This document shows positions 22,338 to 49,935 of a stretch of 50,800 nucleotides of DNA, one piece after another. The notes under the pieces were generated by a model. That model was not told where the DNA came from. It ran no database searches and was given only the letters and a program-made list of their open reading frames with translations. The DNA comes from Folioceros fuciformis (lineage: Eukaryota). The position numbers and the translations under genes were made by a program. The stretch is taken from positions 1 through 50,800 of the forward strand of contig JBNGIO010005748.1 of NCBI GenBank assembly GCA_049999805.1, in the 5' to 3' direction. Every line of letters starts with the position of its first letter. The first letter of the stretch is position 1.

Positions 22338-24180
22338 TCAGCCGTCATCTCCACATGAGCATGACCCGTTCTTAAAATGATGAACGTGGTGAGCATCTCG
22401 GACAATTATCTCCCGCTTCTCAATATTGGAGATGATCTTTGTACCAGTATGGCAGTCACCACACATCCGAAGATTCTTAGTGATAAGAAGTGTTGTGCCT
22501 TCGGAAGTGTTGAGCAGACCATAAGCCAGAGCTAATTTCTCTGCATGTCCGCAAAGGGCATCCTCTTTCTCCTGGTCAGACTGCAGCCTCATAACTTTGT
22601 CAGTTTGTGGGACATAGCCACCTTCCTTCATCCTGGCGTTCAGACTTCTTAGCTTCAATGCCACATCATCCCTCTTCTCACCGACAGTGAACTCGTGAAC
22701 CCTCTGGTTTACTTCAATGAGCGCTTTTGCAGCTTTTTTATGAATTCCTGCACACCTTCTCAAGCTTTCTATGTTCTCTACGTCATCCCACCTGCCTGCA
22801 TCTGCATAGATACTGGACATGAGCGCGTACGATGAAGGATGATCCGAGTCCAATTGGAGGAGACGGTCGAAAGAGAGTCTCCCCCGGCTCACATCGCCAT
22901 ACTTTCTACAGGCACTCAACAGAGACATCCACCCGATACTATCACCACCAAATGGCATGGAGTTCAGCATATCTTCTGCATCATCCAAGCGCCCAGACCT
23001 GCCAAGAAGATCAACCATGATATTGAAGTGTTCCAGTGTGGGCTCTATACTATACTGTTCCTTCATCAACCTGAAATATTGGTGGCCCTCATTCAGCATC
23101 CCTACACGACTGCAGGCAACTAGAAGACAAGCAAATGTTGCAGCGGTGGGCTGGACTCCTCCCTGTTGCATCTCCTGGAAACACTGCACTGCCATTCTAC
23201 CATCATTGTGCTTGCCATACCCATCGATCAGCGCAGTCCATGTTACCACATCCTTGACTGGCAATCTGGCAAACAGTCTTTGGGCATCTTCCAGCCTTCC
23301 ACACTTACCATACATGTCCACAAGTGTGCTTGCAACAAAAGGATTAGCCTCTAACGCCCTTTCCATTATCCGACTATGCACCATCTTGCCTTCCTGTATG
23401 GCACCCACAGTGCCACAAGCTTTTAAGATACTCACGAACGTGATGACATTCGCTGGCATCACGCCATCCTCCTGCATAGCTGCATACAGATCTAGAGCGT
23501 CCTGACCAAGACCTTGCTGAGCATAACCTGCGATCATAGCACTCCACGTCACCACATTCTTCGTTGCTAATCCGTCAAACACATTGCGGGCATCTGTTAA
23601 GCTTTGACATTTGGCATACATGTCTACAAGGGTGCTTCCCACGAATACATTAGACCCGAAGCCATCGCGGACAACATCAGCATGGACCATCCTGCCTGAG
23701 GTCAAGTCCCCAGCATTGGCACATGCCTTCAGAACTGCTACAAACACATAGTCGTTCGCCTTCACAGTCGATTGCTTCATCTGGTTGTACAGTTCGATGG
23801 CCTGTTGAGCTCGTCCATGTTCACTGTTCGCTGAAATGATCGAAGCCCACACATGCGTATCTCTGTCACGCAATTCCACAAACACTTGGTTGGCATCTAG
23901 AAGACTTCCTTGAGAAGCATACAGGCGTATTATGTGGTTTCCAAAGAACGAATCGAGCGCATTCCCAGTTCTCTTTATAAGAAGCGAATGTAACCGTCTG
24001 CCGACAACCAGGTCCCTTCTGGCGATACAACTCTTAATAAGAGAGTACAACACATCATTCGGAATAAAGGTGCCCTCTTGTGCCAGGAGATGCACGGCCT
24101 CGAATGCCTCTTCAAGCTTCCCATCCTCACAAAGTCCCCTCCAGGCTCCAGTTTCAAAGCCAGAGCCATTCCTTGTGACC
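22338..24180 (-). CDS. PLS-class PPR protein with E1-E2-DYW deaminase of the DYW:KP type (organellar RNA-editing factor); main exon, 5-prime exon(s) unresolved
   Basis: About 12 P/L/S repeats ending P2-L2-S2, then E1, E2, KKAAKALIEV, HAEKLALAYGLL, KNLRMCGDCH, HHFKNGSCSCGDDG*. The frame stays open to a likely acceptor at ~24181. Confidence 0.93.
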
Positions 24181-25199
24181 CTAGCACATTTTTATACCGT
24201 CAAAACCAAGATACCCAGAATTAAGAAAAGCATCGATGCATGGCAGGTGCACACTCATCATTCACGTACTGACAGGCCAATACCGTGAAGGGTCTTGTGC
24301 TCGACAAGATGTTCTGCACGACACGACCTGTGCCCCCAAGGAGTTCAAAACCTTCCCTTTGATCCCCTGGAGGTTCACTCCACGATCAAGGTGCAGACAC
24401 CCGCTGGTCCTGACGAGGTCAAGGTCCAGAGAATTCGGATTTCTCTGCGATCATCACCTGATGAGCTGCAAACTCGACGCTTGCAAAAGAACCGACAGTG
24501 CCCAAGCTCAGAAACAAGCTTCACCTGGTTCAACGATTGGTCGGACCACTGCGAAGCGTGGCACTGGAGGTATCTCACACATGTCACATGCGCCTTCCAG
24601 CATCCCTCTCGTTGCGCACATGCAACTGCGAGGCACAGCTGAGGACATGGGAACAACATTCCCAGCTACCAGGAACTAGCAGGAACAACATCAATCAGAC
24701 AATCACCTGGCCATAATGCCGTGTTCCGCACCCTGCCACGACGCGTATGCCATCTCTTCAAACATGACATGCTCCTCCCTTGCTCCCAAGCCCACAAACG
24801 CACATGCGTCTTGCCCAGTTTCCTTCCGCTTCCGTTCACACACAAACTGTTTTGCTCCTCGAAACGTCATGGGAACAGCCCATGTTGGCGATTCAGACGC
24901 CGATTCTTTTCCTCGCAAGTAACAGAGCCTTTATACAGAGCACTGGCCAGCTCCCCACAAGGAATGACGACCGGAACGGGATGGTAGGCGCTCTTAGTCG
25001 GTACAAATTACACAGTGTTCCCAACCCACGTTATTATCGGAGAAATTACTTTTTTTAAATCTCAGCTGAATATCCATACTAATCTATTCGCCATTTTCAA
25101 TTCATTTTAAAACTCTGGTTAAACCGTTGGAGAAGCGAGTACCCATGAAGAAGAGGGGCCCAACTTGGTCCACTACCCAGCTGCAAAACATGGTATGCG

Positions 25200-31903: not shown

Positions 31904-33388
31904 TCACGCGAGCAAGAAGTGGAAGACGTCTCGTAAGGAAACGACACCAAGGACTCTGCGAGTGCCTTCCTCCACGCAGATGAGGCGGCGCACGCCGGGC
32001 AGAGCGAGGCGCTCGATGACGGAGCGGAGGGAGTCAGAGCGGCGGCAAACCTGGCACGCCCCGGCGGCCGCGGCCGGGTTGGAGCGGAGCTGCAGGGCCT
32101 GCGAGACTGTGAGCTCGTGCACCGGCCGGTGCGCGTAGGCCTGGTCCTTGGCCAGGCCGGTGATGTCGCTCCTGGTGTACACGTCCAGGAGGCAGCCATT
32201 GTCGTCCACGATGGGCACGGCGCTGATGCGCACTTCCAGCAGCAGGGAGAGCGCCGTCACGAGGGGCGCGCTGGGCCGGAGCATGGCCAGGGGCTTCCCC
32301 GGTCCCTGTCCAGGGGTCACCCAGGTGCCAAGCCGCTGGAACCGTTGAAGCGCGCCGATGGACTCCGACAGCAGGGGCAGCGTCCCGGCCACATGCCGGA
32401 AGTGTCGGCAGATGCATTTCAGGATCCCGCTCAGGCACGCCAGGTGCAGCAGCTCCGGGACGGATCCGGTGAAGTCCAGCACTGGCACCGTGGCCACCTG
32501 GTGCTGCAGCAGGATGTCCGCCACCCCGCGCAGGGAGCAGTCGGGGCCGACGTAAAGCAGCGTGGGCCGGGATCTGGCCGGGCCCTGGATCTGCACCTGT
32601 CCTTGTCCCTGCGCATCACTACCAACGTCCGCGTCCCTCCGATCGTCCAGATCCCGCGCCACCCCGACCTTCTCCTGCTTCCACCCCGCGATGCTGTGAG
32701 CGTCCAGATCCGCCTCCTGCTCGTCCGCGAGCACCGCTCCCGTGCGCCACAGGTGGCGCAGGATGAGGATGAAGTCGGACGCGGTGAGCATGCCGACGAA
32801 TTGTTGCGTCGTCGAATCCCAGAGCGGGGCCGTGGACACCCCCTGCTCGTACAACGCGTGGAAGGCCTGCCGCACCGGCAGAGTCACGTCCAGGGTCACA
32901 ACCTTCCCGGACTGCGGGAGCAGGTCGTAGGCGGAGGAGTGACGAAGCAGAAAGTCTGAGATCCGCTGCCTGGAGGCTTCCGCCTCGGTTGCGCTCACTG
33001 CCGTGCATGCCACCGGTAGCTGTGGCCGCACCGTCCCCGGCTGATCCACCTCCATGCTCCCCGTCCCTGTCCCCGCACCGGCCCTCTCACCCGCATCCTG
33101 CTCTCGCACCAGAAGCCAATTGTTGACGTTGCCGTGGGGATCCGGCATGCAGGTTTGGCCCTCGTCGTGGCGCCACTCGCCGTCCACGATAAACTTGTAC
33201 TGATGGTATCCTGGGGGAAGATCAAGAACAACCTGGAAGACTGGCCCAGATCCGTCCACCGGGGACATCCGCTGCGTGTCCTGCCATCCTGTGAAGGAGC
33301 CGCACAGGTAAACCAGGCGACCTCCATGGGGCCACACGAACCTGGTCGGCACTAACAGGGGAATAGCTCCCGTCTCCTCTCTGAACAT
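31904..33388 (-). CDS. SNF4: SnRK1 beta-gamma subunit (SNF4/KINbetagamma): CBM48 plus CBS domains; single exon, 494 aa
   Basis: VPTRFVWPHGGRLVYLCGSFTGW..LPPGYHQYKFIVDGEWRHDE (CBM); AYDLLPQSGKVVTLDVTLPVRQAFHALYEQG, FVGMLTASDFILIL, SAVPIVDDNG.LLDVYTRSDI, RVLGVVSLRDVFHFLL (CBS). Confidence 0.96.
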   Translation of the reverse strand: MFREETGAIPLLVPTRFVWPHGGRLVYLCGSFTGWQDTQRMSPVDGSGPVFQVVLDLPPGYHQYKFIVDGEWRHDEGQTCMPDPHGNVNNWLLVREQDAGERAGAGTGTGSMEVDQPGTVRPQLPVACTAVSATEAEASRQRISDFLLRHSSAYDLLPQSGKVVTLDVTLPVRQAFHALYEQGVSTAPLWDSTTQQFVGMLTASDFILILRHLWRTGAVLADEQEADLDAHSIAGWKQEKVGVARDLDDRRDADVGSDAQGQGQVQIQGPARSRPTLLYVGPDCSLRGVADILLQHQVATVPVLDFTGSVPELLHLACLSGILKCICRHFRHVAGTLPLLSESIGALQRFQRLGTWVTPGQGPGKPLAMLRPSAPLVTALSLLLEVRISAVPIVDDNGCLLDVYTRSDITGLAKDQAYAHRPVHELTVSQALQLRSNPAAAAGACQVCRRSDSLRSVIERLALPGVRRLICVEEGTRRVLGVVSLRDVFHFLLA

Positions 33389-33624
33389 CTGCTCTCCGAT
33401 CGCTTCCTCAAGTCTAGACCTTCACCTTGGCCTTCCCCTAGCGTTGCCTGGCGAAATCCCTAGTCCTCGATCGCGCTCTCATTCGAGCATGGCAGTGAGC
33501 GCTAGAGGCGATGGCCAAGCATAAAAGTCGAAGCAAAGCAGCTATAGCAGCGCCGGATGCTTTCTATTCCTGATCAGGCTGTGCTTCCTCCGTGGATTCA
33601 CTGGCCCTTTAGGTCTCAATGGAT

Positions 33625-45184: not shown

Positions 45185-45722
45185 TCATTCAACACTGAGT
45201 GCCTTGAAGTACTTGCGATCCACTAAGAAGGAGCCCACAGCAAATCGCACTGCCCACACATCCTTCGGTCTCCTGTCAATTATCCTTCAACACCCGGCAC
45301 AAATTTTCATCGTCACACTTCAGTTGCACGCAGCGGGTTGGCAGACGGGGGAAGCAGGGTAGTGAGACCAACCTCCCAGCATCTCCCGGTTTGATCAGTC
45401 CCTTATTCACCCGCATCATGGGCATGGGTTCTGCGGTCTTCAACATCGGAGGCTGCTCCACAATCACAATGGGGCTCCCGACCTTCAAGTTCTCATCGCC
45501 CTGCTGAGCCCTAGCAAAGCCTGTCGTCCCAGTCACAGACTGGCCAGGCCACCAGTGACACTCCGAGCGTCGCCTGAGGGCTCTCAGGCTCGCCTCTGAT
45601 CCCCGCACCTCTTTCCCGATTCTGAAGCCTGGCCTTGACAATACCGCCGAATCCGTACAGCTAAATCCACGTCGTGATGACAGGGAACAAGATGCAGCAT
45701 ACGTGCACATGACCATAGACAT
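45185..45722 (-). CDS. CRR42: CHLORORESPIRATORY REDUCTION 42 (DUF3148/SipA-like NDH assembly factor), 2 exons
   Basis: Transit-peptide-like start; LKVGSPIVIVEQPPMLKTAEPMPMMRVNKGLIKPGDAGR|IIDRRPKDVWAVRFAVGSFLVDRKYFKAL; exons 45722-45373 and 45284-45185. Confidence 0.88.
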
Positions 45723-45925
45723 TTTGAGCTGGAAGGACTCAGCTAAGCTTGTACCCACAGTTGCTGTGACCTAGCGGTTTGGAAAGTGGACGTACATATG
45801 TACCAGGGACTGTGCGAGATTGATTAGGTCTAGTGGGCGAGCGAGTTGAGTGCAGCTCCAGGATCTCTAAGGGAAGTCCTTGCTGGAATGTAGCCAAACG
45901 TTGGATTGATTCCTGGTTGCGAATC

Positions 45926-48890
45926 ATGCCGTCCAAGGATCGTGTTGCATACTTCTACGATGGTGAGCCTTCCTGCGTGGCGGAATTTCTCATGCTGTGC
46001 TACAGAGTTTGTATTCGTCCTGGGCATGGAGCTTGTGGGGAAGGATTGTCACTGCTCTCGCCTGTGCGAGCTGTTATGGTCTGAAATTACATCGTTGCGC
46101 AGGAGACATCGGTGGTATTTACTACGGCCCGAATCATCCGATGAAGCCACATCGATTGTGCATGACGCATCACCTTGTTCTCGCTTACGATCTCCATCTC
46201 AAGATGGAAATATATGTAAGTTGACTGTTATGCGAGCAGGATTCTAGCACTTCGGATGCCGCTTCCACTTTAAGTTAATCTCAAGTCTCTGTATCTCTTT
46301 CGGCAGAGGCCTCACAGAGCAGATCCCATGGAGTTAGCGCAATTTCATTCATCTGACTACGTGGAGTTTCTACATCGAATCACACCCGATCATGTCGATC
46401 GGTATGAAAAGGAGCTGCAGAAATGTATTCTTCCCACCTCGTCAGTTGTGGTAGAAGGACATTGCTCTGGAGGCTTGTTTTCTCCTTTTGAAATAAAAAT
46501 AAAAATCTGAAGATGGTTGTGTTCTTCGATGGATAGTTGCTGCTAGTCTTTGTTTCTGTTCTGTTTTTCTGTTTTACACGGGGTAGGACCATATTGTATT
46601 TTTGCAGATAATCTGGGGCCGGGACATGACAGTCCAGTATTTGACAACTTGTTTGAGTTTTGTCAAATGTATGCTGGTGGGACAATCGGTAGGTCCTGGT
46701 CTTGCTTGACCTCTTCACCGTGTAGGGAAATATTGTATGTTTGCAGATAATATGGGCGAGGATTGTCCAGTGTTTGACAACTTGTTTGAGTTTTGTCAGA
46801 TTTATGCTGGTGGGACAATCGGTATGTAGTGATATTGTTTGTACTGGGCATCATGTGACATATATCCTTGCTCTCACAGACAGCTAACTTCCTTTCTGCA
46901 GTGACGTAAGAGCAGTTAGTAATGTTCCCCTGCTCTATTGGTCAGATGCTGCTCGCAGGTTAAACAATCAGTCTTGTGATATTGCGATAAATTGGGCTGG
47001 TGGGCTGCATCACGCTAAGAAGTGCGAGGCATCTGGCTTCTGCTATGTCAATGATCTGGTGCTCGGAATCTTGGAGCTACTTAAGTATTTTGCACGGGTT
47101 CTATATATCGACATTGACATTCACCATGGGGATGGTGTTGAGGAAGCTTTCTATCTCACTGACAGGTATGTTGCTGTGGAGGAATCTCATGGCAGATTGG
47201 TCTCAGTTAGTTTCAGCACTGATTTTTGCCCTGGAATGTTAGCCAAGACCTGAGTTTAATTCTCATGCAAGTACTCGACCTCCTTGTCTCAGGGTAATGA
47301 CTGTCAGTTTTCACAAATACGGAGATTTCTTTTTCCCTGGTACTGGCGACGTGAAAGTAAGTCTAGCATACGGTTGCAGGGTTTTCGTTTTTCCATGCTA
47401 TGAGACGTAGCACTTTGACTGATCCAAAGATGTCCTCCAATAGTGGGTCTCTGATTGTCAGTTGTGCCTAACAGGACATTGGATCACAAGATGGGAAATA
47501 TTATGCAGTAAATGTGCCCTTGAAAGATGGCATTGATGACAAAGGCTTCAAGCAGATGTTTGAAGCAGTGAGTCAGTCTCCTCCTTGGGTCTTCTCTACA
47601 TAACTGTGGAATGGACTTCTCGCTTGTTTACTTTATGACACTTCCCTTCATCTTTTTGTCTGGTTGCAGCTGCCATTGGGTAGCTGTTCTTGAGGAAAGC
47701 AACTTTCGCCGACTCTATATTTTGAGATGCTGAATAAAGAATGGGCAACTGTCAGCGCAGGTAATTTCCAAGGTGGTTGAAATGTATCAACCGGGGGCCA
47801 TTGTTCTTCAGTGCGGGGCAGATTCACTAGCTGGGGACCGACTTGGTTGCTTCAATCTTTCTATAGACGGTACCTAAATCCGTTTTGTTTTCTTGCAGAT
47901 GAACTTCTGTAAGTCCATACCATCATTTCTTTTTACTATTTCTTATAGGCGAGCTGGTCAGTTGGAGTTGTTATGCCTTTGACTGTAGGTCATTCTGAAT
48001 GTGTGAAGTATGTGAAGAAGCTCAACATACCGCTGCTGGTGATTATGCTGATATCTGGCATTTCCTAATACTCCCCGTTATACCTAGTCCTTCTGTTGTT
48101 GTATCGCTTGCTATATTTCCTCAGAATATCTGGCATTGTTCTAGGTGACTGGAGGTGGAGGGTACACAAAGGAGAATGTCGCCCGCTGCTGGACAGTGGA
48201 GACAGGAGCGCTAGTTGATACACAGCTTTCAGACAGTAGGACCTCCTCACTCTGCAGGAGCTGAACTCTTTTGGAAAGTGCTCAGGAGGCCATACGTTCA
48301 CTAACCCGTTATCTCATGCAGACATCCCAGACAACGACTACCTGAAGTACTTCAAGCCTGACTACACGCTCAAAGTCAATCCCGGGAATCACATGGTGAA
48401 TTCTCTGTTTAGCCTGTTCTTTACGCTCAGTGCGTGCTTTTCTCAATGTTTTGTGTTTGTTGTGCAGGAGAACCTGAATAGCGTTAAGTACCTCAGTAGT
48501 ATCCAGAGGCAGGTCCTTGAGAATCTGAGGAGCCTAGCACATGCCCCGAGTGTGCAAATGCAGGAGGTTTTTCCCGCAACCTTGGCCGCTAGTTTTGCGA
48601 GGTATGAGTATTGTTCTTAAACTTTGCGTGATGGGTGCAGCTGCCTCCGGACACCTGGTTCCCAGAGTTTGACGAGGATGAGACTAACCCCGATGAGCGC
48701 ATCAACCGTAAGTTGCGGCGCATGTTCTTCATTCATAGTTTGAAGTGCTGTCGGTGAAAATTCTGTAATTTTTTTAACTGGGACAGTTATGTCTTTTGCA
48801 GAGCATGTTCAAGATAAGCATGTTCAACGGGACGACGAGTACTTCGATGGAGACAATGACAACGACCATGAAATGGAGGATGCTGGGTGA
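45926..48890 (+). CDS. HDA9: Class I RPD3-type histone deacetylase, HDA9/HDAC3 clade, multi-exon
   Basis: [101 protein letters not shown], end [20 protein letters not shown] (TGA 48888-48890). Confidence 0.96.
46608..46821 (+). other. HDA9: Tandemly duplicated HDA9 exon pair: A 46608-46688 (81 nt) and B 46747-46821 (75 nt)
   Basis: Both flanked by ttgcag| and |gta, both phase 1-1. A encodes [28 protein letters not shown] encodes [25 protein letters not shown]. Confidence 0.9.
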
Positions 48891-49778
48891 TGAGAACGAA
48901 GTTTGTTTTGCTCTCACGAACGATTGAACTTGAGAATGTGAACGGTTCATCAGCATCTGCGTCGTGGGATGGGCAAATTCTTCCTTTTTCCTTTTTCCTG
49001 CCATGCATTCGAGCTTCTACGCGTTGTCACCTCGTCTTCATGTTTTAAGTAGAAGACGTCGTCAACGTTCAATGGAACCCTTGTATTCAACCTTGTGTTT
49101 CATCTACTTGGACTCTAATATTATCAAGTTTTCGTGTCCGACGTCCAGGGTAGAATCCATTTTAGGTCAGTGGAATGGCCTGTTGAGTAGCCTGGTCCTT
49201 GACTAACGGACAACCACACTCTGTTGGTTTCATCGTACTCTGTCGGTGTACGGATGTTTTCATCAGCCTCAAGTTCACTATGTGGCAAAACACTTGGGTT
49301 CAATGTCTTCGGTTGGACGTGTGGGAAGCCCAAACTCCTCCTGTTGTGACGTGTGTGGAGTTTGTTTGAGAAAATTGTGAAGCCTGTGGTGGACTATTTT
49401 TCAACTACAACAAATATGTGCATTTTCACACACGGCTCCTCAACTCGTTGCGAAGAAATGAGCGGCTGTGGCTCTCCGCTGTCAGGATGGTAAGTGCGGT
49501 TTTAAGTGTGACATCGAACGGCTGGCCAGCTGTGAGGATGATCAAGCGTTGCCACTGTTGGTAATGCTTGTAAGAGTGGATTAGCTGATTATCATCGAAA
49601 TCCAAAATAATTAAAAATATTTAATAATTAATATAATATAATTATACCATGCAAGGTGGTGTATTGTTGTACTTTGGAAGAAACCCGGTATCACTGCTCA
49701 TTCAGCTAAGTTTTTCTTTGGAGAAGTTTGTATAAGAATCAATAGTAGCAAGCTCAATCAAGTATGAGTAGCGATAAA

Positions 49779-49935
49779 CAAAGGTCTAGGAAAACTAAGG
49801 TGTTAAAGTAGCTAGTCCTTGCACACACCAAAGGTCTAGGAAACGTAAGGTGTTAAAGTCGATAGTCCTTGCACACACCAAAGGTCTAGGGAAACTAACT
49901 TGTGTTAAGGTAGATAGGTCTTGCACACACCAAAA
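49779..49935. repeat. About 50-bp tandem repeat x3
   Basis: caaaggtctagg..taaggtgttaaagt..tagtccttgcacacacca units at ~49780, 49829 and 49879. Confidence 0.88.

Follow-up and report, generated by a model that had tools for sequence, protein, structure and literature searches.

In the window considered here, a stretch of 50,800 nucleotides (nt) of DNA from Folioceros fuciformis (positions 1 to 50,800 of contig JBNGIO010005748.1, assembly GCA_049999805.1, forward strand), a gene for an HDA9/HDAC3-type class I histone deacetylase contains two tandem copies of its fourth exon, which we term exons 4A and 4B. The duplication itself is confirmed, and a spliced transcript joins exon 3 to 4A and 4A directly to exon 5. 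On balance, we are inclined to read the two copies as a lineage-specific pair of mutually exclusive exons that yields two enzymes. The idea of an exclusive pair, which had been put forward in an initial annotation of the same DNA, is partly supported by the evidence presented below.

The scheme that we favor would run as follows. A tandem duplication of ~139 nt would have copied exon 4, the acceptor region ahead of it and the first part of the intron that follows. The downstream copy, 4B, would then have kept the ancestral sequence, and the upstream copy, 4A, would have undergone its main change at the L2 loop on the rim of the active site, where it gained two residues and acquired His for Glu and Ser for Cys, with the neighboring Asp being kept. 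Both copies would have stayed competent for splicing, with the donor of exon 3 pairing with either acceptor and one or the other copy being included. The donor of 4A would be unable to use the acceptor of 4B, which lies 58 nt away, because the intervening intron would be too short and would place its branch site just 21–29 nt from the donor; 4A would consequently be joined to exon 5. The outcome would be two enzymes differing only in the L2 loop, of which the 4B enzyme would carry the Cys that in HDAC8 makes a reversible disulfide, and the 4A enzyme, with a Ser in its place, would not be switched off in this manner.

The deacetylase gene and its duplicated exon

The gene model draws on splice sites and on homology to related proteins, and its frame was verified to be open. 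Exon 5 by itself matches the histone deacetylase domain PF00850, which the related proteins carry, with 88.8 bits against a cut-off of 27.9. The best match of this exon among solved structures is human HDAC3 (chain 4a69_A), with which its GGLHHAKK and DIDIHHGDG stretches align column for column; we take these stretches to be the catalytic His pair and the zinc-binding residues. The predicted product spans 434 amino acids (aa) with 4A and 432 aa with 4B, and its nearest named relatives are plant HDA9 proteins of 426–433 aa. Over the full length it is 81% identical to a liverwort protein, 82% identical to a bryophyte-like protein and ~78% identical to angiosperm HDA9-type proteins. Judged by its predicted product, this is a complete HDA9/HDAC3-type class I histone deacetylase gene. 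Matches to exon 5 in the protein collection reached at most 94% identity, and the species' own proteins therefore seem to be absent from that collection.

Exons 4A and 4B (Table 1) are 88% identical, with nine substitutions over 75 aligned nt and a single 6-nt indel. Four of the nine substitutions are synonymous, falling in Gly, Asp, Val and Gln codons, and the other five nucleotide changes sit in four codons, where they account for the L/M, H/E, S/C and M/I differences between 4A and 4B. In both copies the first two bases complete a Tyr codon and the final base opens an Asp codon, and neither contains an in-frame stop. The product would stay in frame in all four versions of the gene, including those with both copies (459 aa) and with neither (407 aa). 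The duplicated unit of ~139 nt (46577–46715 and 46716–46848) extends beyond the exon to include 31 nt of the acceptor region and 27 nt of the downstream intron, and differs between the copies at 6 of the 31 upstream and 11 of the 27 downstream positions (17/58 in total). Given the 88% identity, the extension of the repeat unit into the intron and the fit of both copies to the frame of a complete gene, the pair is not a chance resemblance. No intron of the gene is shorter than the 58-nt spacer, the others measuring 72–193 nt, and the share of pyrimidines in the 20 nt ahead of the AG is 0.60 for 4A and 0.45 for 4B.

These observations bear out the structural description in the initial annotation, which had reported two tandem exon copies with duplicated acceptor contexts (these match as it quoted them, with the six differences in 31 nt), intact AG/GT sites, a shared 1-1 phase, lengths divisible by three without stops, four synonymous changes alongside a few replacements and a frame-preserving 6-nt indel, and a spacer shorter than the other introns that it had delimited in the gene. 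Its start for exon 5, given as 46947, needs correction by one base, as both the gene model and a transcript joint place it at 46946.

Table 1. Coordinates of the deacetylase gene and of the elements in and around its duplicated exon
Feature	Position	Strand	Description
HDA9/HDAC3-type class I histone deacetylase gene, coding span	45926-48890	+	14 exons plus duplicated exon 4
Exon 3	46307-46424	+	donor AAAT/GTATTC (exon/intron), faces a choice of two acceptors; joint 46424 to 46608 in the transcript contig
Intron between exons 3 and 4A	46425-46607	+	183 nt; last 31 nt (46577-46607) are part of the duplicated unit
Exon 4A	46608-46688	+	81 nt, phase 1-1, AG/GT; derived copy, loop G-P-G-H-D-S-P-V-F
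Spacer, 4A donor to 4B acceptor	46689-46746	+	58 nt
Exon 4B	46747-46821	+	75 nt, phase 1-1, AG/GT; ancestral-type copy, loop G-E-D-C-P-V-F
Intron between exons 4B and 5	46822-46945	+	124 nt; the second duplication unit ends within it, in 27 initial nt that have diverged
Exon 5	46946-47165	+	common to both forms; catalytic His pair, zinc-binding DIDIHHGDG, L3-loop Cys (GFCYVND) as would-be partner of the L2 Cys

A spliced transcript includes exon 4A

The only public run that turned up (X1), which contains 32% of the sampled words of the gene, was examined over positions 45700–49300. This run is stored as contigs, and since assembly keeps one path it can show the presence of a splice form, not its absence or the proportions of several forms. 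We found in it one spliced contig of 2107 nt with a depth of 68, which has no mismatch or indel relative to the window. The contig contains 13 GT..AG joints at the exact exon borders of the gene model, comprising all the joints of the 4A form. It is on account of these joints that we take X1, which is labeled as RNA only by guess, to be RNA. Two of the joints, 46424 to 46608 and 46688 to 46946, place 4A between exons 3 and 5 and leave out 4B, and a joint from 46688 to 46747, which would link 4A to 4B, does not occur in this single contig.

The contig is direct evidence that 4A is spliced into mRNA and that its donor passes over the acceptor of 4B close by. Because the contig joins 4A straight to exon 5, 4A is neither a dead duplicate nor constitutively joined to 4B; these were the two outcomes, 4A in no RNA and absent or decayed in relatives, or 4A and 4B always spliced together, that had been named at the outset as contrary to an exclusive pair.

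Exon 4B retains the ancestral sequence and appears to be under selection

An alignment of both the 4A and the 4B frames was used to collect 63 metagenome loci encoding exon 4. All 63 possess the B-type loop, and in five bryophyte-like loci (L001, L003, L004, L005 and L024) the 24 residues of 4B are matched identically. The borders and the phase of exon 4 are conserved in those loci that are genomic. The best-matching loci show ~75–88% DNA identity across exon segments and are thus distant relatives. Since these loci have the B-type exon, we assign all four replacements and the insertion to 4A and none to 4B. The duplication probably arose in the lineage of this land plant. One of the loci, L042, has two matches but was rejected as an instance of exon duplication, the matches being 2.2 kb apart and belonging to two separate intronless genes.

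The neutral yardstick was the divergence seen either in the duplicated flanks (19% upstream, 29% overall) or at synonymous sites (~23%), in each case halved for one lineage. By this measure 5.2–7.9 replacements would be expected in 4B under drift and none is observed in its 24 codons (Poisson P 0.006–0.0004), an estimate that involves small numbers and assumes equal rates and no gene conversion. Likewise, the 3' portion common to the two exons has only 3 differences in 54 sites, whereas the flanks have 17 in 58 (Fisher p = 0.0011). The pattern points to purifying selection preserving 4B, and such selection would in turn mean that 4B reaches functional mRNA; it is from the conservation of 4B that we infer its use in mRNA. 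On the 4A lineage there are five replacement changes and at most four synonymous ones, with four of the five replacements falling within six loop codons beside the insertion. Outside the loop, the residues of 4A all occur in working orthologues, the Leu as in NLGEDC and the Met as in FCQMY.

Three proteins encountered in these comparisons show other irregularities in the same region. In a Marchantia model of 360 aa (P0089) the end of exon 3 (..LLRY) runs directly into the start of exon 5 (AAHRL..) with the exon 4 segment missing, which may be an annotation slip or an exon-skipped transcript. A metagenome-type class I deacetylase of 496 aa (P0005), which resembles an oomycete protein (P0002), has two consecutive copies of ~66 residues spanning the L2 loop, with the differing loops N-M-D-N-D-D-C-P-A-F and N-V-G-E-D-C-P-V-F; this may be an independent tandem exon duplication that was read through by the gene caller. 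Finally, a Papilio HDAC3 of 501 aa (P0006) contains an exact tandem repeat of ~63 residues over the loop and the catalytic His region, which is likely to be an assembly or annotation artefact as its copies are identical.

The short spacer as a candidate mechanism of exclusion

The published mechanisms of exclusion (PMC6071210) are an intron that is too short, incompatibility of U2 and U12 splice sites, decay of mRNAs that include both exons, and competing RNA structures. Decay of the double-inclusion mRNA cannot apply to exons that are multiples of three (PMC6071210), and it is ruled out here, as the version with both 4A and 4B stays in frame (459 aa). Regarding U2/U12 incompatibility, the GTATTC of the exon 3 donor is loosely U12-like, but no U12-type branch motif is present in 46425–46945. 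The longest inverted repeat in the region has 12-nt arms (46575–46586 and 46713–46724) that are 83% complementary, is present in the minimum-energy fold and would loop out 4A. We do not rely on competing RNA structures, since the predicted folds are no better than those of shuffled sequence.

With decay, a U12 motif and RNA folds set aside, the short spacer is left as the candidate mechanism. Within it we noted two branch-like motifs. The first, TTGAC with its A at 46709, lies 21 nt from the 4A donor, in agreement with an earlier observation of a branch-like motif close to that donor. The second, TTCAC with its A at 46717, is 29 nt from the donor and 30 nt from the acceptor, and is the duplicated counterpart of a TTTAC found 32 nt ahead of the 4A acceptor. 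A branch-site scan of all introns of the gene was too noisy to fix the real branch points, with several introns lacking any motif. In flowering plants the reported minimum length of introns is ~70 nt. Were the spacer to be retained in the mRNA, the frame would shift and then meet a TAA stop at 46748–46750.

Predicted consequences for the L2 loop

The segment encoded by 4B aligns with residues 93–118 of HDAC1, its Asp falling opposite D99 and its Cys opposite C100, and the P-G-H-D-S of 4A aligns on V96-G97-E98-D99-C100 of the same protein. Hence, 4A keeps the G-x-D-x-P-V-F frame and the Asp, and differs in having His for Glu, Ser for Cys and two residues added N-terminally. The alignment agrees with what had been proposed from the letters of the DNA, namely a canonical GEDCPVF loop in 4B, and in 4A a loop with the Asp retained, two extra residues and a Cys to Ser change. 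The Asp matching HDAC1 D99 is presumably the residue that grips the substrate backbone at the rim of the active site. The Cys beside this Asp is present in 4B (D-C-P) and not in 4A (D-S-P). A further Cys, in the L3 loop (GFCYVND) encoded by the shared exon 5, aligns with C145 of HDAC3.

HDAC8 is reversibly inactivated by a disulfide between C102 in its L2 loop and C153 in its L3 loop (PMC6174833). The same paper states that the C102S mutant retains catalytic efficiency and that the enzyme lacking the Cys pair is insensitive to peroxide (PMC6174833). It also gives C102 as conserved in class I, with Ser in the class IIa enzymes, and C153 as conserved in classes I, IIa and IIb (PMC6174833). In view of this conservation of C153 across classes, we take the L3 Cys of exon 5 to be its equivalent. 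Among plant enzymes, Arabidopsis HDA9 and HDA19 are recorded as oxidized after salicylate treatment (PMC4342551).

The greater length of the 4A loop has parallels in two unrelated metagenome genes for class I deacetylases (L060:1120-1197 and L062:586-663), whose loops, G-E-F-T-D-C-P-V-F and G-E-Y-T-D-C-P-V-F respectively, are two residues longer at the same spot as 4A; extra loop length is therefore tolerated in nature. By analogy with HDAC8 it is plausible that the 4A enzyme is insensitive to redox state, and its substrate preference might also be altered. A bolder proposal, which we consider possible though somewhat on the unlikely side, is that splicing acts as a toggle of the active-site rim, in which the 4B form could be locked by a disulfide, the 4A form would remain active under oxidative stress and perhaps act on other substrates, and the 58-nt spacer would enforce the choice between them.

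Weighing the alternatives

A number of observations weigh against a pair of exclusive exons that yields two enzymes. No 4B-containing RNA was seen in the one contig-based run of guessed kind; thus, of the pair as originally proposed, the 3-4A-5 mRNA stands as observed and the mRNA with 4B did not appear in the one assembled contig. With respect to the mechanism, introns of 72 nt and 73–74 nt are spliced in the same gene, and in the 72-nt intron a branch-like motif sits 28 nt from the donor. The predicted folds round the exons are no stabler than those of shuffles (z of -0.76 for 521 nt and -1.56 for 191 nt). Steric exclusion by the 58-nt spacer is the best available reading of the mechanism and would depend on the splicing length limit of this particular plant. 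The ratio of five replacement to at most four synonymous changes on 4A is close to that of neutral drift, and the clustering of its changes in the loop could be due to selection on the loop or to one complex mutation, of which the latter would count among these adverse points.

The distribution of the duplicated exon adds to them. A search for both exons in HDA9 orthologues of related species had been suggested in the initial annotation, and no such case was found among the proteins and metagenome loci surveyed, all of which are distant relatives. Specifically, a tandem second exon 4 occurs in 0 of the 63 metagenome loci, which are distant and of which some are spliced transcripts or end near the match, and a metagenome scan with the 4A frame alone gave 588 pattern matches and 0 relatives. 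Among 120 related proteins none has a 4A-type loop or a duplication. Comparison of the frame round 4A with proteins produced one candidate in the 73–2000 aa range and three in the 36–118 aa range, all with the ordinary loop, and as few were scored this is weak evidence. On the functional side, the oxidized Cys listed for Arabidopsis HDA19 in a table of PMC4342551 belongs to a different peptide that lies outside the L2 loop.

The main alternative is exon replacement, in which 4A is always used and 4B survives as an undecayed relic with little or no expression, leaving essentially one enzyme with an altered loop. The sole transcript seen includes 4A and skips 4B, no 4B-containing RNA was found for the species in the one contig-based run, and 4A comes first in order and has the acceptor richer in pyrimidines (0.60 against 0.45). 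Nevertheless, we regard replacement as unlikely, given that 4B shows zero replacements in 24 codons and intact splice sites while the flanks differ at 17 of 58 positions, that five to eight replacements would be expected in it under drift (P 0.006–0.0004), and that a contig retaining one path cannot show 4B to be unused.

A converse explanation would make 4B the working exon in most cells, with 4A representing a minor or noisy inclusion, an impaired product and no adaptive role. The presence of the 4B loop in all other HDA9-type proteins examined, the near-neutral substitutions on 4A and the finding of the 4A-type loop nowhere else are all in keeping with this view. It is rendered quite improbable by the survival in the X1 assembly of the 4A form, at a depth of 68, and by the retention in 4A, outside the loop, of the frame, the splice sites and the residues of working orthologues, with its 3' 54 nt differing from 4B at only three sites. 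That the second copy is an artefact of assembly, either a misplaced allele or a spurious tandem repeat, is hardly credible, although no DNA run turned up that could have verified the genomic arrangement independently. Over the exon the two copies show 9 differences in 75 sites and the 6-nt indel, and over the flanks 17 differences in 58 sites, far above what alleles or assembly stutter would give. In addition, the remainder of the gene is not duplicated, and the transcript shows no mismatch to the 4A copy or to the exon on either side of it.

Other features of the window

A CRR42-like frame lies head to head with the deacetylase gene (45276–45770 on the minus strand and 45700–45961 on the plus strand). 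The X1 contig extends 328 nt beyond 45700 and covers part of this frame, which may mean that the 5' ends of two transcripts overlap or that the deacetylase mRNA has a long leader. An antisense stop-free frame of 156 codons (46380–46850, minus strand) takes in exon 3 together with 4A, 4B and the introns between them, and is probably due to chance. Downstream of the gene, at 49760–49930 (plus strand), about three tandem copies of a unit of ~60 nt (..caccaaaggtctaggaaa..gtgttaaagt..tagtccttgcacaca) were noted by eye.

Farther away, the minus strand encodes at 22338–24191 an intron-free PPR protein of 617 aa with an E motif and a DYW deaminase domain, which is of the editing-factor type, and at 31904–33421, in a frame of 505 aa, an SNF4-like protein that combines a glycogen-binding module with CBS domains. 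Along with the CRR42-like frame, these two genes characterize the source of the DNA as a land plant. A large AT-rich stretch, with 33–39% G+C, occupies approximately 38–44 kb.

Significance and comparison with known systems

If the interpretation as an exclusive pair is true, the two exons would be a validated homologous pair of mutually exclusive exons in a plant and, for any class I histone deacetylase, the first that we have found in print. No example of such a pair in a deacetylase was found in the literature on HDA9 splicing, plant exon duplication, exclusive exons in Arabidopsis, and bryophytes or lycophytes, judged mostly by titles or the openings of abstracts. The swapped segment would be the substrate-holding loop at the mouth of the catalytic pocket and not a peripheral piece. 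Should both forms be made, they would provide a natural experiment on what the Cys and the length of the L2 loop contribute to enzymes of class I and, for plants, a simple system in which to study how intron length enforces exclusion; splicing might then also couple histone acetylation to redox state. Had 4A taken the place of 4B, on the other hand, the sole HDA9-type enzyme of the species would have a loop unseen in the other orthologues examined.

Tandem-duplicated mutually exclusive exons are well known and common in animals and scarcely documented in plants, the textbook pair with too short an intron being exons 2 and 3 of alpha-tropomyosin. As in pairs of the kind described in PMC6071210, the exons studied here are adjacent, homologous and of the same phase, with a 58-nt spacer and branch-like motifs 21–29 nt from the upstream donor. 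They depart from those pairs in that exclusion is predicted from the sequence and that only the 4A form was seen in RNA. Leaving aside initial and 3'-terminal exons, the Kassiopeia paper lists 99 candidate mutually exclusive exons in Arabidopsis thaliana, of which none is annotated as such (PMC3923563). The same paper states that genes with mutually exclusive exons had not been described for Arabidopsis (PMC3923563). Like those candidates, 4A and 4B are neighboring exons of similar length and the same frame, with conserved splice sites and homology to each other (PMC3923563); unlike them, they come from another land plant and a histone deacetylase, and one of the expected transcripts with a single copy of the exon has been observed.

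At the protein level, the closest parallel is with the C102–C153 pair of HDAC8, since 4B supplies an L2 Cys and exon 5 an L3 Cys, and the Ser of 4A resembles that of the C102S mutant, as described in PMC6174833. The enzyme considered here is a different class I deacetylase, for which the likeness is drawn from the residues of an HDA9/HDAC3-type protein, and 4A further adds two residues and replaces Glu by His. With angiosperm HDA9 and human HDAC3 the gene shares the domain, the length (432 aa with 4B), the catalytic motifs and the exon 4 structure. What sets it apart from the other HDA9-type genes and proteins examined is the second copy of exon 4 and its H-D-S loop, both of which are seen only here.

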